From contig JACQXK010000004.1 of the NCBI GenBank assembly GCA_016208765.1, positions 84,243 through 148,242 of the forward strand: 64,000 nt of DNA, read 5' to 3'. Origin of the DNA: Candidatus Omnitrophota bacterium. GTDB lineage: Bacteria > Omnitrophota > Gorgyraeia > Gygaellales > Profunditerraquicolaceae. A program made the position numbers and the translations under genes. Positions 42,712 through 64,000 of the stretch are shown one piece after another; the stretch's first letter is position 1; each line of letters starts with the position of its first letter. Below the pieces are notes generated by a model that was given only the letters and a program-made list of their open reading frames with translations, searched no databases and was not told the DNA's origin.

Positions 42712-42714
42712 TAT

Positions 42715-43596
42715 TTATGCCTTTGTATTCTTTGAAAAACGGTACTGGATAAATGAAATGACAATCAAAACCACGCCAAAGGTAATTGCCTGAGCGCAGG
42801 CATAACCAAAACGGGACGACCCGCGCATAGACGCTAATATTCTTAAAACCGGCACCGAAGTATGCCCGGCTAATTCTCCTCCGACCAAACCGATAATTAA
42901 AGCAAACGCCTGCATGGTCCCTAATACCGTCAGAATCGCCACTAAAACAATTACCGGTATCATTAAAGGTATAGTTACGTTCTTAAATGACTGCCAGGCA
43001 TTTGCTCCGTCAACTCGGGCAGCTTCATAAAGCTCGCGCGGAATTGTCTGCAGGCCGGCCAGAAACAGCAGGAATCCCCATCCGAATCCTTTCCAACTGT
43101 GCACTATGGCCACAGTAGTAAGCGCAGTCTTAGGGTCGCTTAACCAATTATGCACCAAGTTCGGCAAACCGATTTGCGTTAATGTGCGGTTGATCATGTT
43201 AGCGCCATCAATATCATTAATAATGAAACGCCAGACCATACCCACAACAATCTCTGAAAGTACCGGCGGAATAAAAAATATCACCCGGTAGAAATTCTTT
43301 AATCTGATTTCGCGGTCGCATGCCCAAGCCAGTAAAAACGCCAGGATATTCTGGAAGGTCAAAGCAATCATGGTGATCCAGCCGGCATTTAACATTGACT
43401 GCCACCAGTTAGGATCCTGCAGGATGATCTCTTTAAAATTACCCATACCTACCCAGTTCCAAACCGGCATGATCCCGTCCCAGTCCGTAAAACCGAGCAT
43501 AAATACATAAAAAAATGGAATGATATAAAAAACAGAAAAAATAATTACCGCAGGAAGAATAAACAGGTAATTTTCTAAAGTTGACTTAAGTCTCAT
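42715..43596 (-). CDS. Carbohydrate ABC transporter permease (MalF-like)
   Basis: EAA loop ELYEAARVDGANAWQSFKNVTIPL. Confidence 0.8.
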   Translation of the reverse strand: MRLKSTLENYLFILPAVIIFSVFYIIPFFYVFMLGFTDWDGIMPVWNWVGMGNFKEIILQDPNWWQSMLNAGWITMIALTFQNILAFLLAWACDREIRLKNFYRVIFFIPPVLSEIVVGMVWRFIINDIDGANMINRTLTQIGLPNLVHNWLSDPKTALTTVAIVHSWKGFGWGFLLFLAGLQTIPRELYEAARVDGANAWQSFKNVTIPLMIPVIVLVAILTVLGTMQAFALIIGLVGGELAGHTSVPVLRILASMRGSSRFGYACAQAITFGVVLIVISFIQYRFSKNTKA

Positions 43597-44903: not shown

Positions 44904-45064
44904 TAAAATGCTCCTTTCCTGGACAATCCAACATATAGTTTAACATTTAAAAAAGGTTAAATCAAGGCTTGAAATAGCCGGCAAAGCTCCCTTTGAGAAG
45001 GAAATTAAAATTTATCATAAGTTTAGATAGAGGTCAAGAGTTTTTCACAGCTTTATTAACTATT

Positions 45065-45409
45065 TTAAGCCTGCTGGCAATGCCGCAGTATACGTGACAT
45101 TCCCATTAAATCCGCTTTTTCCAGATTAATCCCTATCCTATATTTATGCAAATCCGCTTTTTGCGACCAAATCACTTTGCCGCGGGCGTATAATGGCTCG
45201 CCTTTCCCATATGTATCCACCCAGACTTCCAAAGGCGTGTTTTCCGGCAAAGGTATTCCTAAAACCATCCCCATACCTTTAGCGCTTATATCAGATAATT
45301 GCCCAGCACCCTCACTATTGTTGTTTAAATCTAAAAAACGCAAAGAACAATCTGCATTAAACCTGGCAAATATCCTTTTATCCGCAAAATTGTCTTGTGC
45401 CATTTTCAC
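45065..45409 (-). CDS. PilZ-domain protein (c-di-GMP-binding)
   Basis: RxxxR-like motif and DxSxxG (DISAKGMGMV) motif; 114 aa. Confidence 0.6.
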   Translation of the reverse strand: MKMAQDNFADKRIFARFNADCSLRFLDLNNNSEGAGQLSDISAKGMGMVLGIPLPENTPLEVWVDTYGKGEPLYARGKVIWSQKADLHKYRIGINLEKADLMGMSRILRHCQQA

Positions 45410-45539
45410 CTCGCATTTTGGAAAATATATCTTATAATAAAAATTCTAACTCTTTGCTGCTAATAAGCTTAATAACCTGATTTATCTGTCCATATCATAC
45501 CCCCCTTTCTTGATTTTGCAAACAATTTTTTGTGTTTTT

Positions 45540-48500: not shown

Positions 48501-48860
48501 TTGTGATAAAACCATAATGCCTAAATGCCCAAGCCCTCCAGTAATCAAAATCTTGTCTTTCTCTTTTCTAGATAAAGTATAGTCAGGCTTGCCTACTGAC
48601 TCTATAAGGTCAAATAATAACGACGCTCCACTCTTCTCGTCTTCCATATCAACATCCAAAGTTATTTTTTCCTTTTCTCCGGATAACGGCAACCATCGCT
48701 CTTCCCGGTCATCAATTTCCATGGCATCTGGAGATGCAAAAGGCAAAACCCCAAATTTTAAAAGCAAGAAAAATATGTCAGCCAACTGAACAAAATGCTT
48801 TCCTTCTAATAGATTACCCTTCAATCTCAATAATGGTATATAATCAACATCTCTTCGCAT
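45540..48860 (-). CDS. Giant multidomain protein (1106 aa): NAD-dependent epimerase/dehydratase, repeat, unknown domain, repeat, arginase/deacetylase-like domain
   Basis: Rossmann motif ILITGGLGHLG (nt ~47570-48545). C-terminal VVDHGQ...HFDAHSD. Two in-frame copies of the repeat family at 46462-46666 and 47098-47284. Confidence 0.6.
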   Translation of the reverse strand: MRRDVDYIPLLRLKGNLLEGKHFVQLADIFFLLLKFGVLPFASPDAMEIDDREERWLPLSGEKEKITLDVDMEDEKSGASLLFDLIESVGKPDYTLSRKEKDKILITGGLGHLGIMVLSQLLDYPVAEDITVLTSRVDYLSDLPLNRSLSRAVKEGRVKIVHCDLTDYASTEKVLSMVRPSFIYHLASDSRIQNSYSEDEFRSIFSNNIAMAFNILDALKNLNLMKTTRLVFTSSLRVYGKRETVEKVGECDCWYNLEHPYELSKIIIENAIAGRVHYSGLRAVVLRLGNLFPLFKKGKPIDIVSKFIKNILEGSFLKMPPNANALYYNFIPLWDCAALAASLIKEFEGSMPCFVNVVGENYSLGDLSNKIKQIVDPKNEKVLRIDDVHPELDTSATGKSRFVSTKLEGLRKIGFIWNPTPIVESLGMAKDIVIVRTSFEKNPISISICRQGERRCLTEGNFSAAQIFGELDRLVENAFREWHIKSSGVNTSFDIKDYKDIPIAEIKNGRTIRHAAFEYIDEDSGGNSGDTTFNSNGGASSAVLKGPSFPNNLETVSKSIGIVGRIRWGASSAAEDRGLFQHSSGSAIACSGSRLALIKDVDLSEAGADAKRIDRNRLWSSLLYPACFRSELFWAQAINNGSYKIFRIKTLSQVLLLQTEETLHLMYRRKLLLARKEIGQPTCLVIRGYAKDKNGDVVDLSGMIVDYSENNGVLYLYRYLCMAGGMSIRLVFNSRDTIFNSDEGASSAVLKEPSFPNNSETVSKSIGTVGKLTSGASSATEDRGHFQRNSSSAIKKEGNGPEVAVVDEVSHTFLPVKLAPMMQCFDRVILRGVKMINDGLWLVVDHGQMYNVVIEYLLKSRISRGATLIHFDAHSDLSMPSRIYGLGQNTIQNWWSEYDCASMIMPLFYHGVISRMYWIVPHYMNPAKEQKNVRKLLIKARRQNRGLIPDVRVIHVYDLPYFSDLKDYPDIILDFDIDYFLLNNCYIDPAFRILSSCGNRERFNDILNERIVTAIKILFERTRFSQKLTVIAQSPEYTHQDYIIPIQEALLSEIGKHSYKSSSAVSMKGNSNENLNYGCLLNTFSQSYAFGFGQMPYWLRRRWWLN
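46462..46666 (-). repeat. Full-length copy of the in-frame repeat (A-part + DR + palindromic core + DR + C-part)
   Basis: ccgtttccttctttctttatggcggagctggagttacgctggaagtgtcccctgtcttctgtcgccgaggaggcgcc...ggaaacagtttcc...caccgccgaggatgcaccctcatcggaattaaatattgtgtccc. Confidence 0.85.
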
Positions 48861-48910
48861 TAATTCGTTAAAGACATCCGGATTACTTGATATAGTTATA
48901 GTCTATGTTT

Positions 48911-51900
48911 CTAAATATTAATATCAATTTGCTTTATCATCTCTCCAAATCTTAAAGTAAGAGCATATGTTCCAGGAGGTAAATTCAAAGTAGCCAAATC
49001 AATTTCCCCTTTAAAGATAAAATACTCGTCGCCATAATAGGAAAACGAGCGTTTCTCATCCAATCTTGCAGGAAAAACTGCAGTCGGATGACCTAAATCG
49101 TCTAAAGTTGGTTCTTTCTTCGCCGTTATTGCCACACCGAGCCACATAGCAAAATCCTCGTCTCCGGGTAAATATATATGAAAAGGAGGATTACCGCAAA
49201 CAAACGGCCGAAAATCTTTTTCTGCATAAAGCTCAAACATTCCTTGTATATGTCTTGCGGCATAGTCAAGGGCTTCGGGCTTAGTCCGAAAAATCGCTTC
49301 CCAAACGTCCAGTTTCACAGCTGCCTCCAAAGAAATCTTGCCATCTGAATTAACCTTAATAATTGTGTCTGGCTCCGGAGAAACTAATGCTGTCCACAGA
49401 TGCGAAACCTCTGCCTTTTGCCAGCGAATTTCCGAATCAGGGTAGATTCTCCTAGCTTCTATCTCTGGCGGAATCATATCTTTCAGTGGCCAAAAATATT
49501 CTCTAGTTTCTTCAAGAGCTGCTTCTTTATAAGTAACCCCCGCAGCAATACCTGTTGCTAAAATAGTTTGCAAATATTCTATTTCGCCATAATTCCCAGC
49601 TTCTCTCAATGCTTCAATTCTTTTATAAAATAATGCAGGCAGAAATTCATCTTTAAACCAGTTGAAAAATATTACTGGATAAGCAACGTTCTGCTCATGT
49701 AAGAATTGCAACAATCTATTTACTCTATTTCCCATAGGTGGACATACCGTGCATTCCATCTTAGGATTAAACCACTTCTTAAAAATACCTCCCATCCTTT
49801 CCCATCCGTCAACAGAAGCAAATCCTTCCCCAAGAGACCCCCCTCTTGAAAAAGCCCTATGGTCACAAGGATAGATTTCTGATGTAGCGCCTAAACAAGT
49901 ACAAAAATAAGCAAACCAACAGCGATCATAATCCGGCTTTCCAATGCCTCTGGATATATCTCTTTCATCATGTATGGTCTCCACCTTAAACCTGCCATCA
50001 GAAAAAGCCATTGATAGATTAAGACTCTCAATAATTTCTTTTTTATCTCTATCATTTAATAAACAGGCTTGATCGGGCCTGATATTAACCTTAAAACGTA
50101 TAAGATCAACGCCTGCTTTCTTAAGCCTTTCTGTTATCTGAACAATGCCTTTAAAATTCTCTTTTCCAATAACATACCCAACGTTTATTGCCAGTTTTGA
50201 GCCAGACTGATTCCTCATATTAACCAGCTCTTCAATATTTCTCATTATTCTTTCAAAATCACCTCTTCTACCTTCTTTCAACTCAAAGAAGCTGTCATTA
50301 CCATAAGCGTCCAAGCTGATATGCACATATTTCGCATAATTCACCAATGTCTCTCTAACTTCTTGGCTCATCAATACACCATTAGTGAATAACCCAACAT
50401 CAAAACCAAGCCTTGACGCTGCTGCTATCCCAAGAAGAGTCGTCTTTTTATTCACTAATGGCTCTCCGAATATGCCGGAAAATTTAATAACTTTCGTTCT
50501 TAATGATGGGGCAGCTTCTTCATTCGCAAGAAAAAAGTTGCAAAGCAACTCTAGTAACCAAAGAGGAGACATTTTTTTCTGAATTTTGCATCTTTCTTTC
50601 TCTCCGATGCAGTGCTTACAGTTTAGATTACACCCACCCGAAGGCTGAACTTCTATTTCATAAGGCAGAAAATCAAATTCCCCATTTAAAATTTTCAAAA
50701 CTCTGTCATATTGCCTTGTAAGTATATTTTCTTCGTAATTAAACTGCGTCCCTGAACGAGATAAGAAAGATTCTAACGCATTCTTCCATTTCACCTTCAA
50801 AGAAAATGATTCTGCTTCTCCACCAACCCCAGAAGATAAGCAACTATCTATTGCAGCAACTTCAGAACCTACACCGTTTCCTTCTTTCTTTATGGCTGAG
50901 CTGGAGTTACGATGGAACTGTCCCTCGTTTTCTAAGGCCGACGAAGCGCCTGCGGCAAAATTAAAACTACAATCTTCAAATCTCATAATCTGCATATCAA
51001 TTTCCTTATCAACAGAAAAATAATCTATATTCTGGTTTCTTGTAGATTTCTCATAAAATACATTTGGTTTGCGAAAGTTCGGCTTAAAATCAAAAATAAC
51101 CCAGTCTTCTTGCCCATAGAAAAGCACTCTCACCCACATATGACCATATACAATTGATTCAGTCCAGATTGCCTGAACATTTTTTATCTTATATTTCCCA
51201 AATTTTTCAAATTGATCAAAGTGCGAATAAAATAATAGCAATATCGCCCTAGAAATAACCCCACAATCATTCTCTCCAACAATTTCATGTAATAAAACGC
51301 CAACAAAATTATGCACAAGAGGATCAACAACAATACGTCCATCAAAAATATCTTGAATTGGATAATTAATTGAATAATCTTTTAAATTTACCTCGGTTAA
51401 ATTACTAAGTTTATTAGTTAAGGGCCGAAATTGCTTATAACGCTTATTCGCAATTAACAACACGTTTCCCCGTCTTTCAAAAATATCATTTTTATTCCAA
51501 TCAAGAACAACGGACGATTCTATTCTTTTCTCCAACGGCGAAGAGACAGCTGTCAAATTAAGCATTGCATCCCCTGAGTTCCTCCCACCTCTTCTTAAAA
51601 ATATTGAATAGAGCCTAAACCATTCTTGCATTAACTCAATCTTATCCCAAAGAAGAATTACAATATTAGAATCAATATTATTACAAAGGATTCCATTGCA
51701 ATCTTCTTTAAAAATTATTGAATCACCATTAAAATATACACAAGAAAATAACCCTGCTTCTTCTAAATATTGAATATACGACCCCTGTTTCCTTCCCCTG
51801 CCAGTAAATATCTCCTCCAAACCAAAACGATGGCTTATAAAAAAGTAGTCCGTTAGCATAAGCGGAATATGAAAGTATATTTTGTAGCCTCCCTTTAAAT

Positions 51901-54900
51901 AATTGGATGCTATTAAAGATTTTAAAAATATACCAAAATTTTGCACCATACAATAATTCATACTCCCGCCAACATGAACAAAAATTGTTGGGCAATCTTT
52001 ATGCTTTTGCAATATCTCAATTATTTTTAGGCTATCAATATCCCCATGAGGATTAAACTCCTGTAATGGATCATACACATACCCTGCAAATTCTAGCCAC
52101 TTCAACGTTGACAAAGAATCTGCTTTTTTTATTATTAAATGGGTATATAAAAGATATGTAGGAATATTTCCTCTAATTAGTTTCTTAATATCTTCTTCTA
52201 TTTCTGCTGCACCTGCGATTTTCACCACCGAAGAAGCGCCCTCATCGGAATTAAATATTGTGTCCCCGGAATTGCAGGAATTGTGCGAACCAGGGATAGA
52301 ATTGGCAAGATCAACCCAATCCCGCAATCTTCTTTGATTCTGCGTGTCCTTAAATGCTGCTACTATCAAACGAAAAGCACTACGTACTTGCTCGGAGGTA
52401 AGCAAATCTGTCTCTGTATGGAAAAAATTACGATCAGGAAAATTATCTACAGGCCCGAACTTTTTCCCGCCAACAAATCTTACTCTCCCCTGGAAATCTA
52501 AACCGGGATATGGAATAAGAGTTGCAAGCTCAATGAAGTTTGGCTGGCTTATACTAATAAAATCAATTGTTTTCTGGACTGAGGCAATTGTCTGTCCAGG
52601 AAGGCCAACCAAATAATAATGCCCTATAAAAAGGCCCAGGTCTTGTGCCCATTTAGTAACTAATCTAACCGTCTTTAAATCCACTCCCTTACCTATTTTA
52701 TTCAACAAATCCTGGTCACCTGTTTCCACTCCAATATTTATGCCTACAAGGCCAGCCTGCTGCATCAACTTTAGTAGCTCCCGAGAAAGACAATCAGCCC
52801 TGCTATGACAAATCCATTTTATGCCTAAACCTACTCTGATGAATTCTTGGCACAGAGACGTTATTCTCTGTGGATTTAAAGTAAAGGTGTCATCAAAGAA
52901 GACAATAAAAAAAATGCCTTGCGAACGCAAATATATTAATTCTTGCATAACATGAGGAATGCTTCTTGATTTAATGGCCTTGCCCCAAACATTTGAAGCA
53001 CAGAAAATACACCCATAAGGACAACCAAAGGAAGTCATCATTCCGAATCTAGAAATATTTCTACTATCTCCTAATGCATCTTTTAACAAATCAAGGCTAT
53101 TGGCAGCAAAGGGGAAATCATCAGGCCTAAAATGAATTATTTGTTTCCTGTTGTCTACGATTGCCGTGGTTTGTTTATTCCCTGATTTGTCTTTAAATAT
53201 GATCCCCTGAACACGAGATAACTGGTCAGACACAAAACCATACTTAGCCAAAATATATACTGCTCTCACCAATGCTTCCTCTGCCTGCCCCGCAAAACCA
53301 ATATCAAATTCACTTGCTTGTAAAACCTCTATTGGCAAGAGAGTAAAATGAGGCCCTCCAATTAAAGTAATAATTTCTGGATTATACTCTTTGGCTATCC
53401 CTGCGGCTTGGACTGCTTCTCTGATAGACACCGAAGTTGCAGTAACACCAACAATATCAGGATTAAATTCAGCAAATACATTTTTTAGTCTTAATCGCGC
53501 AGCTTCGCCCCTTAGTCTATCAAACCCTGTCATTAAACATAATATTTTAACCTCATATTCAGGCATTCTGCTTCCCGGGAATATCTTGCTGAATAATTGA
53601 GGATCACGCAAAATACTGGACAAATATGTGCTGACTATAGAATCTGCGCGTAAATTAGGTAAAGGCTGGGTATCAATTAATAGAATTCTTTTGTTCACCG
53701 CCGAGGAGGCACCTCGCTTACCCACTGTCCCGATTGATTCGGAAACAGTTTCCAAGTTGTTCGGGAAACTGGGCTCTTTTAGCACCGCCGAGGATGCACC
53801 CTCATCGGAATTAAATATTGTGTCCCCGGAATTGTTCAATGTTGTGCCCCAGAAACTACCCACAGCCGAGGATGAGCGACTTCTACGGTAACTGACTTCA
53901 TTTCTGGCATGTCTCCGGAAAACTTCTTGGCAGCCGAAAATAAGCGTATCCAAAACTGGCTGTATCGCACGTATTTCTTCAGGATTTTCGTCTCGCCAGC
54001 CGATTAAATCTACAAATGTCAAGGCGCGGCTAAGATTAACTTTTGCACCCTTGCGGATTTCTTCATTATGTAGCTGTTCACAAATATTTTCTCCGATGAA
54101 AGCTAATTGATGACGAAAATCTAATTCACCATCTTTCATTTTCATTTTATTTGCCACTATATAATAGTAATAGTAAAAAATACAGGCATGCCCCCAATAA
54201 AGCGTTGTAATAATTTTTGCGCTATTTTCAATGTCTGCAAAACCATATTCAAAGCGACAGTATTTTCTTTCTTCAAGATACTCTGCCTGTTTCCTGAATC
54301 TAACTGTTTTACCCGTCTTTTTAAACTGTATTCTTTTATCTGAAACGTAAGCAACAACTACATCAAACATCAGCCACTCTAAATCTCTTAACAACATTTT
54401 TTTTATATCTTTGTGAATTAAATTATACTGATAGGCACGAACACCGACATTCACCTGCACAGAAACTATGTCTTCTTTTCTCAAACAAGCATTTTGCATA
54501 ATCTTACCTAAAGTAAGAACCTGGATAGCAGGACTCCATGCAGGACGAGTTTTGATTTCAACCAGGTTCAAATGTTTATCTTCATCTTCCCAAGAAGTAC
54601 CACAACATTCTTCTTTGGTAGGCAGGATAGCTGCTATTCCCCTGAGGTTGCATTCATTTTCTGAATGTCTCTGGCTAAGCTCTATTTCCAAACCTATCGG
54701 GATAGCCACGAGTTGTCTAAATTCGCTCTCGGTTCTTACTACACGACTATAATTTATACCTAACGACATCAAATCTTTGCCACCTTGAGTGAGACTAAAT
54801 GCTCCCTTGTCCACCGCCGAGGAGGCACCTCGCTTACCCACTGTCCCGATTGATTTGGAAACAGTTTCCAAGTTATTCGGGAAACTGGGCTTTTTTAGCA

Positions 54901-57900
54901 CCGCCGAGGATGCGCCGTCGTTAGAATTAAGTATTATGTCCCCGGAATTGCCCCCATGAACCTTATCCTCAAATATTCTTTTAAGCACCCTGAAGTCCTT
55001 CGCCCAAGCCAAATCATCTTGAACTAATATTTCCCCGATTATTTTCAAGGCTGCATCTAAACCACCGGAAATTTTAGTAAAATGTTTAGCCAAAAATTTG
55101 CCTACGCAATGAGAGAAAAAACTATCGTCATTCTTTATGTCATCTCTTAATTCCTGGAAAGACAGATGATCATTAAGCGCCTCAAAGATTATTTCCTCTT
55201 TAGTTTCTTGTAAAACATTTACCAAAGGAATCTGTTTAATATGTGCATAACGGGTAATCGGATTTTCTCCATTTTGTCCAATCATCATTATTGCTGTGAA
55301 GACTTTTTCCTCTTTTCTGTAATCATAATTTTCCCAAAGCTGAGGAACTGCCAACATCTGGGAAATGACATCTAAGGTTTCGTGAACACCAGCATCTACT
55401 TTGGTAACTCTGCCTTTTAATATTTGGCATAAAACAAGATGCCCTATTTCTGCTGCAACATATTTCAGCCTACATTCTTGCATCCTTACAGGTCGGCCAA
55501 GATTAATTCTTTCTTCATGTGGGAGTGAAGTTATTGCTTCAGCATTACCAAAAACAATTTCATTACTAATTATTATCAAAAACATCCTGCCATCCCATAA
55601 TAAAGGCCTTCTAAAAATCCCACTAGTAAACAACGCAGGATAACCTTTATAACCAAAGATCCTTGATGGACCACTGATTATCTTATAAGATTTCTTTATT
55701 TTTTCATAAAGAGCCTCCTCACAAAGGCCGAGCCTATACAACATCTTAATAATGTGGGCATCCGCAAACAATCTTAAATATTCTGGTTCATGAACAATCT
55801 CCCAAAAGTTAGATACCCAAAGCTTAATTTTAATCTTTGTTTCTTGTTTCAAATCAGTACGATTTGATTTTTTAATAATATCCATAGCGCCATTTCCTTC
55901 TGTCTTTATGGCAGAACTAGAGTTATAATGGAGCTGTCCCCTGTCTTCTGTCGCCGAGGAGGCGCCGCTTGTTAGCTTACCCACTGTCCCGATTGATTTG
56001 GAAACAGTTTCCCTAACAATCTGGAAACTGTTTCCGGTCTCCAAATTAAGTATTGCACCTCCGGAATTACCTACCGGAGAGCTGGTAACGCGACGATATA
56101 AATGCATATTTCCAAATACGCCTATTTCTTGAATGTCTTTATCAACGTCAAGTGTCCCCGGTGGAATTAACCCACTAATTAATGGATCTCTAAGGTCAAA
56201 ACCTGCCAGATACATGACTGCGCCATTTTTCATTTGCATAATACTGAGTAAAAGCGCCAGGGAAAAAAATGAGCCATCTTCTAACGGGGGATAGATATGA
56301 AATACATCATACAATCTAAGATCTTGACTGCTGCAATCATTAAAGACCAAATGGACTCGGCCTGGATCAATCGCACCTAACTGAACAAGTTTAGAATAAA
56401 TTGCAGATTCTTCATTATGTATCCATTTATTAATCTCAAAACGCGTTGCATCTATGCCCGTTACCGCATTGACTAACATAGCTAATAATCCACCTCCAAA
56501 AAGACTGCAAAATTTTTCATTCTTACTGAAATATCCTTCCTCTTGTAAATACCGAATAAAATTTAAAGCGCTCTCATAGCCTATTGCCGAATGAAGAGAC
56601 GTATGATAACCGGGGCACTCAGCAATCCTGTCCAGGTATGCCTTGTATTCTTTTATAACTGCAGCTATTTTTTCTTCGGCAGTTAGTTGAGTTGTCGGCG
56701 GGATAGAACCATCTTCCACCACAGAGGAGGCGATACTTGGGCCGACAGGAAAATGCTCATCTATAATGAACTCTTTTAAAGAAAATCTCTCGGCTATAGC
56801 ACCTAGATCTGCCTCTTTCCTGCTTATACCGGCTTGACCAGTGTAAACAAGATAACCCTGAATTGCCTGAGCATATTTTCCTTCCCAAATCAAAATCGCA
56901 ATAGTAAGCCTTGCGCGCACATCTTCGCTAAACTCCCGAAAATCCATCGCCTGCCGCAATCTTGACAAGATCTGCATCCAATACTTCCCTGTAACTAAAC
57001 TAAGGTCGGTTTTAATATTATTAGCCAGATTGCTCTGCGTCATTAGCCTGAATCTCCCTGGATTCTTACAAAAATATTTAATGATGTAATGTACTGCCTT
57101 ATTGACAACCCTTTCTTGCCTCGGACTTAGAAGCGCAGAAACAATCTCATTTTTATCAGAGCAACTATCTTCTCCTGCATGCAACACAGACACAGGAGCC
57201 GCAGGCAAAAGAAGCGGGGATCTTTCTCTTTGAGTAGTGCAACCCCTGCCAAATGAAGGCTGGCTTCTTCTAATGAACGCCCTTCTCTTGGCTAACAAAT
57301 GATAAACCCTAATCGCCTCCCGATGCCAAAAAATACTACAAATATCTCCCGAAATAAAACCGGGATGATTTCGCTTCACAAAATCATAATACGATAACTT
57401 TAGATCCTGATCGCTGATGTAGCCTTCCTCTTCCTTGCTCCTTGGATAAAAACCAAATAACCAATATGAACTTAGGCGGGGCTTTTTTGACGGCAAATAT
57501 ACACGGTATCTCCGGGACGAATAATATAAGTACGGGTCTTCTCTCATAATATCAAACGCCCATATATTAATCCCGCAACGGATCCTTCCGGTAACCAGTA
57601 ACTCAACCGTAAACCTGCTCGTATATCTTTGCACCCTGCCTATTGGCATTAAAGCTTTTCCAACCGCATGAACTGTCTTGGTCTTTAACAAAATTTCATA
57701 TGCCTGAGCGGTCAAAACAAAGAATTCGTTGAATTTTTCTAATAAACCTTTCTTAACCAAAGCACGACTGGTAATTTGGAAAAAAACTTCACTTAATCCT
57801 GTGGCTTTAACGAATAATTTAGGTGAGTTATGCTTCCTGGAAACAGCAAAAAACACTAATACCTGCGCTGCATTAGCAAAGCGCTTGCCTGAGGAACAAA

Positions 57901-57955
57901 TATCCTTTTGGAGACAATACCTTCTCCAAACCCGCCGCACAAGAAACGCCTTCAT
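48911..57955 (-). CDS. Giant multidomain protein (3014 aa) with at least 7 unrelated segments joined by in-frame repeats; includes a B12-binding radical SAM, a second radical SAM, and a transglutaminase-like Cys protease domain
   Basis: Uninterrupted 9-kb ORF. B12-binding motif DIVGVTATSV...IGGPHFT plus CPYGCIFC at ~52998-53026. CNLNCKHC at 50603-50650. Cys/His/Asp triad DCGVISRA...YGHMWVRV...DWVIFD at ~51.0-51.5 kb. Repeats at 50874, 51548, 52226, 53696, 54812 and 55891. Confidence 0.6.
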   Translation of the reverse strand: MKAFLVRRVWRRYCLQKDICSSGKRFANAAQVLVFFAVSRKHNSPKLFVKATGLSEVFFQITSRALVKKGLLEKFNEFFVLTAQAYEILLKTKTVHAVGKALMPIGRVQRYTSRFTVELLVTGRIRCGINIWAFDIMREDPYLYYSSRRYRVYLPSKKPRLSSYWLFGFYPRSKEEEGYISDQDLKLSYYDFVKRNHPGFISGDICSIFWHREAIRVYHLLAKRRAFIRRSQPSFGRGCTTQRERSPLLLPAAPVSVLHAGEDSCSDKNEIVSALLSPRQERVVNKAVHYIIKYFCKNPGRFRLMTQSNLANNIKTDLSLVTGKYWMQILSRLRQAMDFREFSEDVRARLTIAILIWEGKYAQAIQGYLVYTGQAGISRKEADLGAIAERFSLKEFIIDEHFPVGPSIASSVVEDGSIPPTTQLTAEEKIAAVIKEYKAYLDRIAECPGYHTSLHSAIGYESALNFIRYLQEEGYFSKNEKFCSLFGGGLLAMLVNAVTGIDATRFEINKWIHNEESAIYSKLVQLGAIDPGRVHLVFNDCSSQDLRLYDVFHIYPPLEDGSFFSLALLLSIMQMKNGAVMYLAGFDLRDPLISGLIPPGTLDVDKDIQEIGVFGNMHLYRRVTSSPVGNSGGAILNLETGNSFQIVRETVSKSIGTVGKLTSGASSATEDRGQLHYNSSSAIKTEGNGAMDIIKKSNRTDLKQETKIKIKLWVSNFWEIVHEPEYLRLFADAHIIKMLYRLGLCEEALYEKIKKSYKIISGPSRIFGYKGYPALFTSGIFRRPLLWDGRMFLIIISNEIVFGNAEAITSLPHEERINLGRPVRMQECRLKYVAAEIGHLVLCQILKGRVTKVDAGVHETLDVISQMLAVPQLWENYDYRKEEKVFTAIMMIGQNGENPITRYAHIKQIPLVNVLQETKEEIIFEALNDHLSFQELRDDIKNDDSFFSHCVGKFLAKHFTKISGGLDAALKIIGEILVQDDLAWAKDFRVLKRIFEDKVHGGNSGDIILNSNDGASSAVLKKPSFPNNLETVSKSIGTVGKRGASSAVDKGAFSLTQGGKDLMSLGINYSRVVRTESEFRQLVAIPIGLEIELSQRHSENECNLRGIAAILPTKEECCGTSWEDEDKHLNLVEIKTRPAWSPAIQVLTLGKIMQNACLRKEDIVSVQVNVGVRAYQYNLIHKDIKKMLLRDLEWLMFDVVVAYVSDKRIQFKKTGKTVRFRKQAEYLEERKYCRFEYGFADIENSAKIITTLYWGHACIFYYYYYIVANKMKMKDGELDFRHQLAFIGENICEQLHNEEIRKGAKVNLSRALTFVDLIGWRDENPEEIRAIQPVLDTLIFGCQEVFRRHARNEVSYRRSRSSSAVGSFWGTTLNNSGDTIFNSDEGASSAVLKEPSFPNNLETVSESIGTVGKRGASSAVNKRILLIDTQPLPNLRADSIVSTYLSSILRDPQLFSKIFPGSRMPEYEVKILCLMTGFDRLRGEAARLRLKNVFAEFNPDIVGVTATSVSIREAVQAAGIAKEYNPEIITLIGGPHFTLLPIEVLQASEFDIGFAGQAEEALVRAVYILAKYGFVSDQLSRVQGIIFKDKSGNKQTTAIVDNRKQIIHFRPDDFPFAANSLDLLKDALGDSRNISRFGMMTSFGCPYGCIFCASNVWGKAIKSRSIPHVMQELIYLRSQGIFFIVFFDDTFTLNPQRITSLCQEFIRVGLGIKWICHSRADCLSRELLKLMQQAGLVGINIGVETGDQDLLNKIGKGVDLKTVRLVTKWAQDLGLFIGHYYLVGLPGQTIASVQKTIDFISISQPNFIELATLIPYPGLDFQGRVRFVGGKKFGPVDNFPDRNFFHTETDLLTSEQVRSAFRLIVAAFKDTQNQRRLRDWVDLANSIPGSHNSCNSGDTIFNSDEGASSVVKIAGAAEIEEDIKKLIRGNIPTYLLYTHLIIKKADSLSTLKWLEFAGYVYDPLQEFNPHGDIDSLKIIEILQKHKDCPTIFVHVGGSMNYCMVQNFGIFLKSLIASNYLKGGYKIYFHIPLMLTDYFFISHRFGLEEIFTGRGRKQGSYIQYLEEAGLFSCVYFNGDSIIFKEDCNGILCNNIDSNIVILLWDKIELMQEWFRLYSIFLRRGGRNSGDAMLNLTAVSSPLEKRIESSVVLDWNKNDIFERRGNVLLIANKRYKQFRPLTNKLSNLTEVNLKDYSINYPIQDIFDGRIVVDPLVHNFVGVLLHEIVGENDCGVISRAILLLFYSHFDQFEKFGKYKIKNVQAIWTESIVYGHMWVRVLFYGQEDWVIFDFKPNFRKPNVFYEKSTRNQNIDYFSVDKEIDMQIMRFEDCSFNFAAGASSALENEGQFHRNSSSAIKKEGNGVGSEVAAIDSCLSSGVGGEAESFSLKVKWKNALESFLSRSGTQFNYEENILTRQYDRVLKILNGEFDFLPYEIEVQPSGGCNLNCKHCIGEKERCKIQKKMSPLWLLELLCNFFLANEEAAPSLRTKVIKFSGIFGEPLVNKKTTLLGIAAASRLGFDVGLFTNGVLMSQEVRETLVNYAKYVHISLDAYGNDSFFELKEGRRGDFERIMRNIEELVNMRNQSGSKLAINVGYVIGKENFKGIVQITERLKKAGVDLIRFKVNIRPDQACLLNDRDKKEIIESLNLSMAFSDGRFKVETIHDERDISRGIGKPDYDRCWFAYFCTCLGATSEIYPCDHRAFSRGGSLGEGFASVDGWERMGGIFKKWFNPKMECTVCPPMGNRVNRLLQFLHEQNVAYPVIFFNWFKDEFLPALFYKRIEALREAGNYGEIEYLQTILATGIAAGVTYKEAALEETREYFWPLKDMIPPEIEARRIYPDSEIRWQKAEVSHLWTALVSPEPDTIIKVNSDGKISLEAAVKLDVWEAIFRTKPEALDYAARHIQGMFELYAEKDFRPFVCGNPPFHIYLPGDEDFAMWLGVAITAKKEPTLDDLGHPTAVFPARLDEKRSFSYYGDEYFIFKGEIDLATLNLPPGTYALTLRFGEMIKQIDINI
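53696..53834 (-). repeat. Representative copy of the in-frame modular repeat (DR-core-DR-C form)
   Basis: caccgccgaggaggcacc + tcgcttacccactgtcccgattgattcggaaacagtttccaagttgttcgggaaactgggctcttttag + caccgccgaggatgcacc + ctcatcggaattaaatattgtgtccccggaatt. It is about 90 % identical to copies at 46462, 47098, 54812, 55891 and 60921. Confidence 0.85.
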
Positions 57956-59714
57956 CAGAATCAGATGCTACATCATCAGGAATACCCGAGAATATGTCTC
58001 TGGAAATAATTGGGCTGCTTGCATCTATCCTGTCCGCGCGGAATATCAGGCTGACAACCGTAGAATTAGGGACAAGATTGACAATACTCACATGCCCGTC
58101 TAAAAAAGCTTTGGCAAAATTCAACACATGAGTTAGCCCTAAACCATTGGCTCCCTGCTCTCCTTTCTTATTTTTGCTTCTGCCGAGGCCTTCAACAAAA
58201 AATAATGCAACTAACCCATTCATTTCAACATAATTATCTATATCTTTCAATGCCCTCTCAAGATCGATCAGGCGCTCAAATCTATGAGAATTATTCTTCA
58301 GGTATTCTCCTTGCTCAGGTATCCCGAGGATTTCAACGATAAGTTGACCTGTTATTTTGTCGCGCCAAAGCTTTTTTCTATCGGCCTGTTTTTTTATTTT
58401 TGAATATAGCTCGTCCAGAACAAAATGATCTATATTCCCCTGGTTCTCAACGCTTAACTTAAATACACCTGTAGTTGGTTCTGATAAATTTATCCTGATA
58501 ACGCCTGACAAGTTTTCATCGTGGGCATTCTTCAAAAGCTCCCCAATTAAGAATCTCAGCATGAATTCAAGACCTTTCTCAAGAATAAGTTGCCTGTCTG
58601 CGTAGTTAATTATGCCTGCGGTATCAAGTTTCCAATAAACTTTGAGGCGTTGATTAACACCAGAGTATTCAATAGAATTGTGTTTTAAGAAAGGGAATCC
58701 GTCTATAATATGATTTAGCAAATCAGAAAAGTCAATTTCTGCTAAAAACGTATATTTGCTGAATGACCTTATTCTATTTATAGCCTTATTTTCTGCCAAG
58801 AGTTGTTCATTATCAAGACCGTTTCCTTCTTTCTTTATGGCAGAGCTGGAGTTATAATGGAGCTGCCCCTTGTCTTCTGCCGCCGAGGAGGCGCTTCGTG
58901 AATAGAGGGCTCTTAAAGCAACGTGGAGCAGAAAGGCCCTCCCATACCATTGATTATAGCCTATATCGAGTTTCCTAAAGATACTCATAAGCGCCTTATC
59001 AACTTCAACGGTTCGCGCGGAGAGCTCGGAAGAATCATTGATTATACATGAGAGAAGATTATCTCCAATTATACTGAGTTCTTCCTCAACTCTGCCTATG
59101 CCTTTCCAGAAGGCAGCTTCGTACTTCTCTTGCATAGAGAATAAACTCCCAGACTCAGGATACATCAACCTCCCTATTGATCTTTGCTCTGCCAACAATT
59201 CTTTATTAGCCAAGAGCACAAATACACCTTCTTCTCTCCAGAAAGAAAAGGACACCCCTGCAGGATAGGTAAGATAACTAAACTTACCCCAATTATTTCT
59301 GAAAGACATCAAATCGACGTTCTCAAAACAATCCAATAATAGCTCTATGTTCCTAGCAATGCATAGTTGTGCTTCAGCGTCAACCAGAACCCTATCTGCA
59401 GGATAATTGTCCTCTGGGCCATATGGCCCCTCTTTTACAAGTTTTCCAAAAGGTTCGCGCAAAAACTCCGGCAGCTCAAGTTCTTTTAGATATCTTAAAT
59501 TATGCTTGAATCTCCCAAGCTTATTTAAAACCGCTCCATCCTTTATATCCGAAAAATCAAATGTACGGCAATACCTGACCTTTGATAAAAATTGTAACGT
59601 ACGTGATGGCTCCAATGCAGAAATTCCAAATTCTGCACCTAAATATGGTCCGGCCGCACATTGCAGGGTTATCGGTCCTTTAGCGTGGTAATCAAGCCTC
59701 TTCTTAAATTCCAC
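57873..59714 (-). CDS. Multidomain protein (613 aa) with an internal repeat copy and a C-terminal GHKL/histidine-kinase-like ATPase domain
   Basis: Bergerat-fold motifs LLKNAHDENLSGVIRINL ... GANGLGLTHV. Repeat A-part at 58819-58895. The frame stays open upstream through the repeat at 59729-59785 up to a TAG. Confidence 0.5.
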   Translation of the reverse strand: MEFKKRLDYHAKGPITLQCAAGPYLGAEFGISALEPSRTLQFLSKVRYCRTFDFSDIKDGAVLNKLGRFKHNLRYLKELELPEFLREPFGKLVKEGPYGPEDNYPADRVLVDAEAQLCIARNIELLLDCFENVDLMSFRNNWGKFSYLTYPAGVSFSFWREEGVFVLLANKELLAEQRSIGRLMYPESGSLFSMQEKYEAAFWKGIGRVEEELSIIGDNLLSCIINDSSELSARTVEVDKALMSIFRKLDIGYNQWYGRAFLLHVALRALYSRSASSAAEDKGQLHYNSSSAIKKEGNGLDNEQLLAENKAINRIRSFSKYTFLAEIDFSDLLNHIIDGFPFLKHNSIEYSGVNQRLKVYWKLDTAGIINYADRQLILEKGLEFMLRFLIGELLKNAHDENLSGVIRINLSEPTTGVFKLSVENQGNIDHFVLDELYSKIKKQADRKKLWRDKITGQLIVEILGIPEQGEYLKNNSHRFERLIDLERALKDIDNYVEMNGLVALFFVEGLGRSKNKKGEQGANGLGLTHVLNFAKAFLDGHVSIVNLVPNSTVVSLIFRADRIDASSPIISRDIFSGIPDDVASDSDEGVSCAAGLEKVLSPKGYLFLRQALC

Positions 59715-59746
59715 TGCCGAAGAGGCAGGACCGTTTCCTTCTTTCT

Positions 59747-62700
59747 TTATGGCAGAGCTAGAGTTATAATGGAGCTGTCCCTTGTACCACTAAAATCTGA
59801 TTTACTCAAAGTTTGCCTCTTAATTCGCGAACTATTCCGCTTCCACCTATTGACTATGCCATCGCTTTCGATCTCAATAACTAAATTATTAATTGACGTT
59901 GCCATTCTTGCCACAGCCAAGCCTAAACCACGGCCCTCTAAACCGATGTTTACCTTTGTAGAATATAAATACTTTAAAACATTCCTAATTGCGAATCCTG
60001 AGAGATTTACTCCTTGATTAGAAATCTCAATAACGATTTCATCCTTATTGCGGCGGAATATCCTGCCTTCCACTGTTGTTCCAGGGTAAGCAGCGCTCAA
60101 TGCGTTCCGGATAACTTCGTATATAGCGTTTGCTATGTCGTCCTCCGTAAGAAAAAATTGCGCTTCTTTTAGGGCGGACTCAATTTTAAAATCATAAATA
60201 TACCGCTTGCCAAGAACATTCGCCAAATCTTGTAATTCCTCGCCAACCATCAATCCCCTTATCATCGGGAGAATCTTGACCCAGGAAAGCCCAAACCCTT
60301 CATATAATTCATGCAAGCGAGGGCTTTGAAACCTATACCTTTCTTCATTAGCCGGATCTCTCTCAATAACATTGAAATAGAATATCCTAGCCGTCCTATA
60401 AATTACGCGTATTACTTTTAAATAAAGGTCCATTAAATAAAAGTAGCGTTGTTTATTCAAGGCTATGACTTTTTTGTCTTTCATAAAAGTAGGGAATTCA
60501 TCGACCAAATCATATAAATTAGTCATAATAAGCCCCAAAGTCGGATCGGCGTAATCTCTTTTAATTAATTCTTCTCCATTTCCTTTGTCATATATATCCA
60601 ATAATTTACTGATAAGTTGATTTACTCTATTCTTGCTGTAATCAGTTTTACTACTTTGACCATGATCTGGAAACACCGAATTAAAATTACCGATGAGCTT
60701 TTGAAGCCCTTTAAGATATTTGGAAAGATAACGATCATATAATTTTATCGCCTCCTCCATAGCTATCCTCTCATTACCGATATTTTGCAAAGCGCTCACC
60801 TTACCAATTACCCGAAAAATTAATCGCTTCTTGATGCTAAAGATAAGCCTCTCAAAATGCTCTCTGAAATATTTCAAGAAAAGCTTAGTAAATAAATAAG
60901 CTGGTTCTGTTTTTTCCTCCGCAGCCGAGGAAGCGCCCCGCTTACCCACTGTCCCGATTGATTCGGAAACAGTTTCCAAGTTGTTCGGGAAACTGGGTCC
61001 TTTTAGCACCGCCGAGGATACGCCCTCGTTAGAATTAAGTATTGTGTCCCCGGAATTACGCTGATCTAAATACCAAGATAAAAAACGCTCAGTTGACCAC
61101 CAATAAAATAGAGCACCATCGGAATGATTAAAACCCTCCCAAAAATATCTTTCATTAAGAGCAAAATTATAGAAAACCCCCTTATGATGCAAAAGATAAT
61201 GAAAATACAAATTATCCTTAATTGCGGCTTTAGAAAAATGCTTTCTTATTGAAAACCCCGGAGTTCCGTAAATAGTATCGAAGATAAAATGAAAAGTAGC
61301 CCGTAATTTAGCGTTCTTTCTCAGCTCTGCGGCCCAAAGGAACCATTGCCAATGGCAAGATTCAAAATAACCGCCTGAGACGATAAAATCTGTAGCTTGC
61401 GGATCTAAAACAAAATCCTTGAGCTTATCTTTATCAACAGCAGGATCAACAATCAATTCATTATGCGGCTTCAAACAAGAATAATGACCTTGCCGGAGAA
61501 TTTCTAAATTTCGGCCACAACCTAATCCTGTCTGCTTCATTAGATTTTCAATACCAACCTGTTTTCGTGAATCTTCAGCGTCAATGATGATATGCCGCAC
61601 ACCGTTAAAACACTCAAGAGGACGCATAGATGAAGAAGCATAACCCCATATAGAAGATATACCTTTGCTATCTTTGAATTCCTTTAATCCAAGCCTAACA
61701 ATCCGCTCCTGTGTCCGCTTCCTTTGAACCTCTATCCACTCTGATGCTTCTTGCTTGGTCAATGTTAAATTCTGAGTGCCGTCACCTTTAGACAATTTTT
61801 TCTCTCCAAGGGGCCGGACAACCGAATTAAAATAATTAAAAATATCAGCAAAACGCTGTCTAACGGCGTACACAGAGATATATTCCATGCTATTACAACC
61901 TATTATTTCTTGAAAGGCAGCCATAGTTAACTCGGTTCCCAATCCCCTGCCTCTGTAATCAGGGGCAATATCTATATAATGGATACTCCCAAAGAAATAT
62001 AGATATCCTTTGAATTCGCCAAATTCTCCATCCTCCAGAGATATGGCTAAACGTACAGAACGTAAAAAATCAAGCCTTAAATCACCGCCCATTTCTTCTC
62101 TTTTACCTTGTTCTAATTTTCTTATAAACCATTCCAAAGAATCATTTAGTTCGTCAAGCATCCTTTTACTATCTTCTGTTTTCCTGTCGTTCTTATTAAA
62201 ATAATTAGAATACCAATGATATAATCCAAGCACAGCAAACCGGCATTGAAATATACTGAGCCTATCAGCGGGAACATATAATAAGGGAACCATTTTCCTG
62301 CCCTCGCTGTCAAGCGTATATATAAGATCCCGGTAATGCCTTTGTGGCTCATATGAATTGTAGCAGGCAAGACTGGTTTTCTCTCCCACCGCCGAGGAGA
62401 CGGATTCTTTTCCGGAAAAATATGAAGCCGGACGCGTGCCAATAATTGCCAATGCGTCATCACCACTTTTATGAACCACCCATTTCCTTAAATAAAATTC
62501 CCCTGGCCTTGGCGAACTCCAGTAAGTTTCATTTGTATTAACGCGTATTCCAATAATTCCCACATCTACATTTATTGCCTTTCTTTTCTTGTTAACCAGA
62601 AAATGTTTAGTATCAGGAGTGTGGGCAACTATCTGAGGCACGCTTGCTTCAAGAAACCAGAAACGTATGTCAAAAATACCATGGTGTGTGCGCTTATTCC

Positions 62701-64000
62701 AATGGCCTCCGCTTATTACAGGATGATCATAATTATTACTTATTACCGCTCGCTTAAAAATAATATTAAATTTATTAACCAGGCTATCCAAATTTTTGTT
62801 GCCGCAAAAATCTTTATCTACACCCGCATGGACAACTATCCTGTCTTCAATGCGCAATGCTGCAATACTTCTTTCTTTTGTCACTGCTTGGCGAATTCTA
62901 TTTTTCCATTTATCAGCAATCTTAGTGGTCCATTCCTGCGTATATTGCCTACCGATAAAATTTTGAAGTTCTTTTGGAACTTCAATTCTTTCCGATACAT
63001 ACATACCCTGCCTATCTGCTTCCTGAGAATCCCTATGATGCAAGTTAGCTAAATAGTTTAATTCGTGATTTCCTGCCAAGCGCAATACTTTACCGCCGAG
63101 TCTTGAAGCTTCTGCTTCTTTCTGCAATTTTGCAAGAATCTCCCAGCAAATTATTGCGCCCATCTCTGGATGCACATCTAGCACATCACCTGTCTGAACC
63201 AAAATAGCATCTCCGGCAATCCATTTAAGCTTGGCTATAATTCTTCTTGCCTCTTCCAATGTCTCACAAAACATTAATTTATTGGCATTATCCGGAGAGA
63301 TAAATCCTGCCCTCCTGAGAATTAAAACCAACGTTTTCCATTTGGCATGCAGATCCCCGATAATTAACCCGCGTAGTTTTATATCCGAAGGCAGACTATT
63401 AATCATCCCCGAACCTATCAAAGCATTCAAAGGAATAAACCCCATCTCCCTTTGACGAATTAATTCTAAAATTTTGGTTATTCTTTTTTCTTTCTGGGTG
63501 GCGTCTAAATTCAACAAATCGTAGCCTAATCTGATAAAAGCCGGGATACGCGGCTTACTTTCTTGCATTGCACAGATAGGACTAGTGGAGTGATTTAAAG
63601 GCAGTATAAAATTAACTTGAGTTCCATAAAAAGCATGTTCTCCTTCTTTAATTTCCGGAGGAGATCTCCCGCTGACAGTCAGGCATAAGCTACTAGCAGT
63701 TTCAGGGCAGTTTCTTTCTTTCTTTACGGCAGAGCTGGAGTTATAAAGAAACTGTCTACTGCTTTCTACAGCTAAAAAGGTGTGATTACTATGCAGCATA
63801 AACTCATAAATCGCGATTACTTCCCCCTTATTCTTGCAATATTGAGCTGCTTCTGCAATTGTAAAAGCATGTTCATTAGCTAGCTCATACAAAACCGCAG
63901 AACGTGCTTGCGGGAAAATAATATATAGCCTGCCTTCGTTAGGGTACAAACGATTAACAGCGCCAGCAAATAAACGCCGCAATGTTTTATAATCCTGGTC
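59747..64000 (-). CDS. Giant multidomain protein (at least 1411 aa; the 5' end lies beyond the window): metallophosphoesterase, GNAT acetyltransferase, C-terminal GHKL ATPase-like domain, and at least 3 repeat copies
   Basis: Metallophosphoesterase motifs GDLHAKW...GDVLD...GNHE (~62990-63350). GNAT IDIAPDYRGRGLGTEL (61925-61985). GLEGRGLGLAVARM (59890-59950). Repeats at 60921-61057 and 63709-63765. The ORF terminates in the repeat at 59729-59785 in a shifted frame. Confidence 0.5.
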   Translation of the reverse strand, partial: DQDYKTLRRLFAGAVNRLYPNEGRLYIIFPQARSAVLYELANEHAFTIAEAAQYCKNKGEVIAIYEFMLHSNHTFLAVESSRQFLYNSSSAVKKERNCPETASSLCLTVSGRSPPEIKEGEHAFYGTQVNFILPLNHSTSPICAMQESKPRIPAFIRLGYDLLNLDATQKEKRITKILELIRQREMGFIPLNALIGSGMINSLPSDIKLRGLIIGDLHAKWKTLVLILRRAGFISPDNANKLMFCETLEEARRIIAKLKWIAGDAILVQTGDVLDVHPEMGAIICWEILAKLQKEAEASRLGGKVLRLAGNHELNYLANLHHRDSQEADRQGMYVSERIEVPKELQNFIGRQYTQEWTTKIADKWKNRIRQAVTKERSIAALRIEDRIVVHAGVDKDFCGNKNLDSLVNKFNIIFKRAVISNNYDHPVISGGHWNKRTHHGIFDIRFWFLEASVPQIVAHTPDTKHFLVNKKRKAINVDVGIIGIRVNTNETYWSSPRPGEFYLRKWVVHKSGDDALAIIGTRPASYFSGKESVSSAVGEKTSLACYNSYEPQRHYRDLIYTLDSEGRKMVPLLYVPADRLSIFQCRFAVLGLYHWYSNYFNKNDRKTEDSKRMLDELNDSLEWFIRKLEQGKREEMGGDLRLDFLRSVRLAISLEDGEFGEFKGYLYFFGSIHYIDIAPDYRGRGLGTELTMAAFQEIIGCNSMEYISVYAVRQRFADIFNYFNSVVRPLGEKKLSKGDGTQNLTLTKQEASEWIEVQRKRTQERIVRLGLKEFKDSKGISSIWGYASSSMRPLECFNGVRHIIIDAEDSRKQVGIENLMKQTGLGCGRNLEILRQGHYSCLKPHNELIVDPAVDKDKLKDFVLDPQATDFIVSGGYFESCHWQWFLWAAELRKNAKLRATFHFIFDTIYGTPGFSIRKHFSKAAIKDNLYFHYLLHHKGVFYNFALNERYFWEGFNHSDGALFYWWSTERFLSWYLDQRNSGDTILNSNEGVSSAVLKGPSFPNNLETVSESIGTVGKRGASSAAEEKTEPAYLFTKLFLKYFREHFERLIFSIKKRLIFRVIGKVSALQNIGNERIAMEEAIKLYDRYLSKYLKGLQKLIGNFNSVFPDHGQSSKTDYSKNRVNQLISKLLDIYDKGNGEELIKRDYADPTLGLIMTNLYDLVDEFPTFMKDKKVIALNKQRYFYLMDLYLKVIRVIYRTARIFYFNVIERDPANEERYRFQSPRLHELYEGFGLSWVKILPMIRGLMVGEELQDLANVLGKRYIYDFKIESALKEAQFFLTEDDIANAIYEVIRNALSAAYPGTTVEGRIFRRNKDEIVIEISNQGVNLSGFAIRNVLKYLYSTKVNIGLEGRGLGLAVARMATSINNLVIEIESDGIVNRWKRNSSRIKRQTLSKSDFSGTRDSSIITLALP

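Follow-up and report, generated by a model that had tools for sequence, protein, structure and literature searches.

How many genes are represented by the array of very long open reading frames (ORFs) at one end of a 64,000-nucleotide stretch of DNA from a Candidatus Omnitrophota bacterium (assembly GCA_016208765.1, contig JACQXK010000004.1, positions 84,243 to 148,242; hereafter the window, to which all coordinates refer)? GenBank annotates the array as four separate proteins of 5170, 613, 2981 and 1106 amino acids (aa), whereas a first-pass annotation of the sequence alone proposed that two of the ORF boundaries are frame slips within one gene. The analysis described here indicates that the first three of these proteins are probably fragments of a single gene of ~8,800 codons or more. 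The reading that we favor, with moderate confidence, is a single continuous ORF that has been secondarily interrupted by one-base changes, one of -1 and one of +1, in two of the linkers that join its modules. These sites are referred to as junction 1 (J1, ~59.75 kb) and junction 2 (J2, ~57.9 kb).

Both breaks lie within linker sequence, the other copies of the linkers in the window are read through, and start, promoter, terminator and recoding signals are absent from the junctions. Continuity, we infer, is the ancestral state. Single-base edits at a run of three G and a run of four A would yield one ORF of ~8,800 codons (~26 kb). The idea of a single broken gene is supported in part, by the position of the breaks in linkers and by linker read-through, and the fused gene would be considerably larger than the size first proposed, which was just over 15 kb.

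Organization and reading frames of the array

All long ORFs of the window are carried by the minus strand, as are the array features described below. The most upstream ORF, listed at 1411 codons (59747-63982), is the end of a longer one that is cut by the window edge. Its frame extends to position 64000 and constitutes the C-terminal 1417 codons of a 5170-aa ORF (P0005) that continues past the window, with modules that include a GNAT acetyltransferase and HATPase_c. The full product was recovered by profile search, and its last 1417 residues match the window. The 613-codon ORF (P0001, HY761_02085) follows in an open frame spanning 57873-59789, with a GenBank start at GTG 59714, and consists of an unknown module, an internal A-type linker (58813-58894) and an HATPase-like module. 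Next, the 3014-codon ORF (P0004) lies in an open frame at 48911-57967, from which GenBank derives a protein of 2981 aa that starts at GTG 57856. It comprises seven modules with six linkers between them, including a B12-binding radical SAM module and a second radical SAM module. The last ORF, of 1106 codons (P0002, MBI4706702.1; 45540-48860), is divided by the same linkers into an epimerase, a module of unknown kind and UPF0489. As the first-pass annotation had recognized, this last gene is separate, and the gap that precedes it (48861-48910) is closed by stops in all three frames, with no linker remnant on either side.

Taken together, the array (5170 + 613 + ~3000 + 1106 aa) contains at least 25 mostly unrelated modules. 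About 14 distinct Pfam domain types tile it, none of which dominates by copy number. They include two methyltransferase types, Response_reg (receiver), a complete Transketolase N/pyr/C set, a weak Fic match, AAA_18 (P-loop kinase-like), MTS, GNAT, HATPase_c, B12-binding, two Radical_SAM domains, NAD Epimerase and UPF0489. Domains score well, for example 3.9e-33 for radical SAM and 7.8e-46 for transketolase, and several modules have no Pfam match at all. The source records of P0001, P0002 and P0004 label the host as a Candidatus Omnitrophica/Omnitrophota bacterium metagenome-assembled genome (MAG), in which the array lies on a 225-kb contig.

The reading frames of these ORFs alternate, with the 5170-aa and 3014-codon ORFs in one common frame and the 613- and 1106-codon ORFs in another. 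Joining the ORFs consequently requires a -1 shift at J1 and a +1 shift at J2. According to the favored reading, the flanking parts would thereby return to their common frame, and the array would represent one very long multi-enzyme gene in which conserved, genome-specific linkers connect 25 or more modules, most of them unrelated. J1 and J2 would then be secondary damage within linkers rather than designed gene ends. In the deposited sequence, the ORF is split by these breaks into three products (5170, 613 and ~3000 aa). If the breaks are real, translation of the downstream parts would depend on weak reinitiation, or would not occur.

A linker family at module boundaries

The linkers between modules are built from three units, designated B1 (NSGDTILNSNEGASSAV), B2 (LKGPSFPNNLETVSESIGTVGKRGASSAV) and A (EDKGQLHYNSSSAIKKEGNG). 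Copies share 83-92% DNA identity with a B+A reference copy at 46440-46667, while the modules that flank them are unrelated. A second B+A linker occupies 55886-56070. B-type linkers are found at 53696-53836, 54812-54951 and 60924-61058 (the latter reading NSGDTILNSNEGVSSAVLKGPSFPNNLETVSESIGTVGKRGASSA, with a palindromic core of ~54 nucleotides (nt)), and other copies at 45642-45684, 47098-47284, 50857-50950, 51533-51580, 52216-52275, 58813-58894 and 63690-63757. All of them reside within 45642-63757, and none occurs in the remaining 45 kb of the window. Outside the window, where the genome was surveyed for linkers through its proteins only, a linker profile searched against 1.84 billion representative proteins matched the four proteins of this array and no others. 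The same profile gave no matches in GTDB species genomes or JGI metagenomes. A word-indexed search with the profile was also empty even though P0002 is present in that database, and it is treated as a false negative.

Orientation and frame are constant among the linkers, and their positions coincide with module boundaries. Nearly all module boundaries, those of P0005 as well as those of the window, bear a minimal motif, xSSA[VA], even where a full linker is missing; motifs of this type number 22 in the 18.5 kb of the array and 2 in the other 45 kb. The motif is nearly always spelled TCC TCG GCG, with codons that are rare here (12%, 8% and 19%, respectively). This spelling points to conservation or gene conversion at the DNA or RNA level, beyond peptide selection alone. 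Judged from their pattern of variation, the linkers are translated: differences between copies are more common at third codon positions, and the read frame has a larger share of synonymous differences than either of the control frames. Recent copying or gene conversion also contributes to the uniformity of the linkers.

Linkers rarely provide a start for the module that follows. Among 15 linker exits, only two are followed within 15 codons by an in-frame start codon that has a Shine-Dalgarno (SD)-like motif, and the B12-radical-SAM module opens with NKRILLID, devoid of a start codon, directly after the linker at 53696-53836. These features indicate that modules are made as fusions. The other ~13 A and B linkers of the window are all read through in the usual frame.

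Some features of the A units have a different implication. In eight of the nine A units, an out-of-frame TAA (GCC ATA AAG) is followed by an SD-like run, GAAGGAAAC (AAAGAAAGAAGGAAAC), with examples at 59751-59733, 58839-58821 and 55910-55880. The A copy at 55.9 kb, within the second B+A linker, is the sole A copy after which an ATG occurs in frame and with an SD-like motif, 9 nt beyond the run (MDIIKKSNR...), and internal initiation is conceivable at this copy. A general role of A units as internal start sites was rejected, as the ATG is in frame and at a proper distance in this copy only. The TAA and SD-like run, together with the ATG of the 55.9-kb copy, nevertheless favor an alternative in which the ORFs are long-standing, functional, separate cistrons coupled by termination and reinitiation, with the giant array subdivided by design and the linker doubling as an intercistronic region. 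We consider this arrangement unlikely, for reasons that emerge at each junction.

The linkers may also be viewed as a structured element. The B unit is ~135 nt long, and its 54-nt B2 core is an imperfect palindrome, 75% identical to its own reverse complement. The predicted RNA folds of B linkers are better than those of shuffled controls (z scores of -1.7 and -3.3). A more speculative interpretation is that the linkers are a dedicated, genome-specific, nucleotide-conserved element that builds or regulates the mega-ORF, serving both as cut marks and as switch points, so that J1 and J2 would be functional or phase-variable subdivisions. The palindromic core, the fixed TCC-TCG-GCG string and the out-of-frame TAA followed by the SD-like run would all be features of such an element. 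The linker would fuse dozens of enzymes, and a one-base slip or recoding event would end one polypeptide and start the next. We regard this interpretation as improbable.

Junction 1

At J1, the 5170-aa ORF terminates with ...SGTRDSSIITLALP* at a TAA (59749-59747) that is the out-of-frame TAA typical of A units. The A-type linker copy in which it lies (59726-59785) is out of frame in the upstream ORF and in the usual frame in the 613-codon ORF. As the first-pass annotation had proposed, the ORF thus ends inside an A repeat that is read in a shifted frame, and translation in the usual frame continues directly into the next ORF: the same bases read WYKGQLHYNSSSAIKKEGNGPASSAVEFKKRL... or, in a longer form, GQLHYNSSSAIKKEGNGPASSAVEFKKRL, running on into the 613-codon ORF. 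A TAG does close this frame upstream, although it is located at 59792-59790 and not at ~59775. The linker frame is open from 59789, and its earliest start codon, GTG 59714, is 25 codons in. An open consensus linker frame that lacks a start supports a boundary inside one reading frame. For separate cistrons, 25 codons of consensus linker peptide would have to be left untranslated in their own frame.

A 17-residue peptide at J1, GQLHYNSSSAIKKEGNG, is identical to that of the copy at 58868, which is 912 nt downstream, and the underlying DNA differs at two of 51 bases, both synonymous. Since the J1 copy equals the A-unit consensus save for one shared synonymous site, a comparison aimed at selection is uninformative here. 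The -1 shift must fall between 59789 and 59750 and, given the conserved peptide, most likely within 59789-59778. A candidate site for the loss of one nucleotide is the GGG run at 59779-59781, where J1 reads ACA AGG GAC AG and other copies read GAC AGG GGA CAG. Adding one G at 59781-59779 would give ...SGTRGQLHYNSSSAIKK... (SKSDFSGTRGQLHYNSSSAIKK), which matches the AGG GGA CAG of the copies at 55939 and 46511, and the repaired peptide TRGQLHY would resemble the DRGQLHY of other copies. Because an ungapped alignment of J1 with the 58.9-kb copy scores equally well, the exact site of the shift is not fixed.

Junction 2

The second break is less sharply defined. The 613-codon ORF stops at 57875-57873, whereas the 3014-codon ORF has an ATG at 57955 in a frame that is open from 57967 (following a TAG at 57970-57968). 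The two ORFs overlap by 83 nt (57873-57955) in different frames, exactly as first reported. A degenerate B1-type linker copy is located near the end of the 613-codon ORF (57934-57969), with SDSDEGVSCAA in place of SNEGVSSAV.

Codon-usage scoring favors the 613 frame up to ~57920 and the 3014 frame from ~57910, and the segment from ATG 57955 to ~57915 appears non-coding in the 3014 frame. The switch at ~57910 thus falls between ATG 57955 and the GenBank start further downstream, GTG 57856, and neither candidate start coincides with it. One candidate site for the gain of a nucleotide, among many, is the AAAA run at 57906-57909. Removing one A from 57909-57906 would give ...LEKVLSPKDICSSGKRFANAAQ... 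(GLEKVLSPKDICSSGKRFANAAQ) in a continuous frame, as would many alternative single-base edits in the 95-nt J2 window. The location of J1 and J2 in linkers, compared with the true boundary at 48861-48910, which bears no linker remnant, supports the conclusion that J1 and J2 are not gene ends.

Initiation, promoter and recoding signals

If the ORFs were separate cistrons, each would be expected to have its own start. No credible start or SD site was found at the downstream ORFs. SD sequences are absent 5-12 nt before GTG 59714, ATG 57955, GTG 57940 and GTG 57856. AGGAGG-type SD sites precede about half of the window's other genes; about half also lack one, which somewhat softens this argument against separate cistrons. 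Stop-to-start spacing is +33 nt for GTG 59714, which is also 21 nt past the SD-like motif, and -83 nt for ATG 57955, where the overlap shows non-coding codon usage in the ATG frame. GTG 57856 lies +16 nt past the 613-ORF stop, a point in favor of separate cistrons. Its use, however, would cut a predicted N-terminal helix that was identified by eye and not confirmed by structure prediction: the AlphaFold2 (AF2) model of the putative winged-helix module after J2 has a predicted local distance difference test (pLDDT) score of 38 and is unusable, and Pfam gives no match for this module. Separate cistrons are further favored by the separate GenBank calls, by the presence of a real boundary at 48861-48910 and by the intactness of both downstream ORFs (613 and 3014 codons). 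In contrast, this genuine boundary looks quite different from J1 and J2. Sites resembling promoters or terminators are no more frequent than expected by chance, and none is found at J1 or J2.

Programmed recoding offers another route across the junctions, by which a -1 shift in the J1 linker and a +1 shift at J2 (or bypass of the TAA) would produce truncated and full-length products from one mRNA. The opposite shifts cancel, both sites are in conserved or structured linker sequence, a zero-frame stop follows closely at J1, and B linkers fold better than shuffled sequences, all of which agree with such a mechanism. The defining signals, however, are missing. No X XXY YYZ heptamer was seen by eye in the zero frame from 59789 to 59750, where J1 reads T GGT ACA AGG GAC AGC TCC ATT ATA ACT CTA GCT CTG CCA TAA. 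The predicted fold of 59795-59690 is no better than shuffles (z=+0.42), with no stable structure 5-9 nt downstream, and the sole downstream stem starts at ~59722, ~55 nt past the likely shift site. At J2, a prfB-like CUU UGA site with a close SD is lacking, as the stop context is CTT TGC TAA T and the nearest GGAG is more than 40 nt upstream; the fold is not significant either (z=-1.2). Rfam has no match at the junctions and thus no frameshift element. In addition, other A copies are read straight through, and orthologues that could show conservation of the sites are lacking. A CCA (take-off) and CCU (landing) pair, 20 nt apart, flanks the J1 TAA with the landing in the linker frame and could be taken as a point for bypass; it was judged coincidental. 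The suggestion in the first-pass annotation that the boundaries are programmed frameshift sites is accordingly not borne out, and we consider it the least probable of the explanations discussed here.

Orthologues and independent assemblies

Comparison with related loci, which could reveal the ancestral arrangement, is constrained by the apparent isolation of this array. Searches of 5.8 billion protein clusters, 1.84 billion representative proteins, the GTDB species genomes and JGI metagenomes yielded no orthologous locus. In the 5.8-billion-cluster search (E<=1e-3), the 613-aa query retrieved only itself despite its HATPase-like domain. The 3014-aa query retrieved itself and two distant radical-SAM matches. 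The array modules are extremely divergent. The only other giant protein retrieved that has a module in common with the 3014-codon ORF is P0007, a 4816-aa protein encoded on a 16-kb contig in ENA, which is 29% identical to that ORF over the B12-radical-SAM part. P0007 is also a string of unrelated enzymes. It has no long repeated linkers, and only three RSExR motifs recur in it.

Independent assemblies cover part of the locus. Logan contigs (L001-L003) from the runs SRR12113402 and SRR12113406 are identical to window positions 40154-46536 (100% over 6.4 kb), and both public runs therefore contain this strain. The contig edge at 46536 coincides with the start of the first repeated 31-mer. The predicted fragments that end at a stop (three edge variants for J1, and those for J2 and for the 3014-codon ORF end) are not on record. 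A long control fragment is missing too, and the absence of the predicted fragments therefore carries no weight either way.

Origin of the breaks

If the array was once a single ORF, its breaks could have arisen during assembly or in the genome itself. A precedent for the former comes from the same phylum, in which repair of a local assembly error merged two neighboring giant ORFs of one Illumina contig into one gene encoding 74,983 aa (bioRxiv 10.1101/2023.11.21.568195). This precedent, weighed against the rarity of such indels from assemblers, leaves a near-even split between artefact and real mutation or polymorphism. Consensus or assembly errors are thus a tentative explanation of the breaks, and real, recent or polymorphic mutations are a possible one of slightly higher standing. 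Assembly collapse between repeats was rejected as a cause, since copies would join in register and the frame would be kept.

Real frameshifts could also signify decay. The array might be a degenerating pseudogene in which everything downstream of the breaks is inactivated, as the two breaks, an annotated 5' end inside a methyltransferase domain and the lack of homologues for the 613-aa part could suggest. However, stretches of 613 and 3014 codons are still open, which is very unlikely in the absence of selection unless the breaks are very recent. Moreover, linker differences are skewed toward third positions and synonymous changes in the read frame, and domains such as radical SAM and transketolase score well in Pfam. 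A decaying array is therefore quite doubtful, hardly better placed than recoding.

Several observations weigh against a single, secondarily broken gene. The fused state is seen in no orthologue or second assembly. A one-nucleotide indel in a run of three G or four A is atypical of errors from Illumina data and de Bruijn graphs, and two such indels only 1.9 kb apart are unusual. The J1 copy has no private substitutions and may owe its conservation to gene conversion instead of translation, and the B1 copy at J2 is marginal (E=0.011 with an nhmmer DNA profile and missed by the protein hidden Markov model). The locus contains one genuine internal gene boundary, which makes a multi-gene layout natural here. 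Finally, the 5170-aa protein begins within a methyltransferase domain, hinting at more breaks and possibly at real decay or real subdivision.

Other features of the locus

The N-terminus of P0005 (residues 1-152), beyond the window end, is of interest in its own right. Its residues 21-75 align with positions 60-118 of PF13847, inside the methyltransferase domain. Based on this alignment, a further frame break or a mis-set start is probably located upstream of ~75,260 (numbered as in the window), and the array may continue beyond the 5' end of this ORF. Elsewhere in the window, two near-identical stretches of ~200 nt (5914-6112 and 7510-7708), with 57 + 141 nt in shared 31-mers, span the 3' ends and downstream sequence of two adjacent genes of similar size (6050-7246 and 7722-8951), which are probably recent paralogues.

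Comparison with known systems

Giant genes split by frame breaks are commonplace in MAGs, and giant proteins composed of many enzymes have been described in Omnitrophota. Of the complete genomes of this phylum, 94% encode such proteins with HATPase, GNAT, methyltransferase and radical SAM content (bioRxiv 10.64898/2026.06.07.730766). The array matches the class of very long Omnitrophota proteins described there as the multi-enzyme metabolic cluster (class 1), as well as the giant genes of the earlier work (bioRxiv 10.1101/2023.11.21.568195). It shares with this class the phylum, the possession of many non-dominant enzyme domains, and a content of HATPase_c, GNAT, methyltransferase, receiver and radical SAM domains. 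It also has essentially no sequence relatives elsewhere, as is the case for most such proteins, and merging of neighboring giant ORFs after correction of Illumina assemblies has been reported there. One difference is size: the largest piece has 5170 aa as deposited, and the fused product would have ~8,800 aa, whereas the cut-off applied in that work is 10,000 aa. If the three GenBank proteins are indeed one, counts of very long Omnitrophota proteins from short-read MAGs would be underestimates.

The frame breaks themselves are ordinary. The unusual part of this locus is the linker family, which is genome-specific, conserved at the nucleotide level, partly palindromic and boundary-marking. Dispersed, nucleotide-conserved linkers between modules are not mentioned in the portions consulted of the two Omnitrophota papers. 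Their closest parallel is the family of Rickettsia palindromic elements (RPEs), which are ~150 bp long and inserted in frame in genes (PMC10969869). Like RPEs, the linkers are repeats (~135-190 nt) that contain a palindromic core and whose in-frame translation yields a conserved peptide within functional ORFs, and they display DNA-level conservation with codons rare in the genome (TCC TCG GCG). Unlike RPEs, which are scattered across many unrelated genes and interrupt domains, the linkers are confined to one array in the 64 kb seen, have one orientation and frame, and sit at module boundaries.

Programmed frameshifts, such as the -1 shift of dnaX and the +1 shift of prfB, resemble the junctions in the overlap of ORFs, in the -1 and +1 relation and in the presence of one transcription unit, and differ in that all of their defining signals are absent here. 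A further parallel is provided by viral-type polyproteins, which likewise combine many enzymes in one ORF and have a short motif at nearly all module boundaries, a place taken here by xSSA[VA]. No protease domain was detected in the array, in contrast to such polyproteins. A HEAFH...NEG..E motif at residues ~1690-1720 of P0005, outside the window, was seen by eye. It resembles a zinc-metallopeptidase signature and could mark a processing protease, and the Pfam search of this HExxH module gave no peptidase match. A second difference is that the boundary motif is conserved at the codon level, a pattern that points to recent copying or gene conversion no less than to peptide function. Whether giant Omnitrophota proteins are kept whole or cut is posed as an open question by West-Roberts et al. 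(bioRxiv 10.1101/2023.11.21.568195). In this context, the repeated boundary motif could be a candidate cut site between enzyme modules or, alternatively, could mark a DNA-level mechanism by which modules are fused or shuffled.

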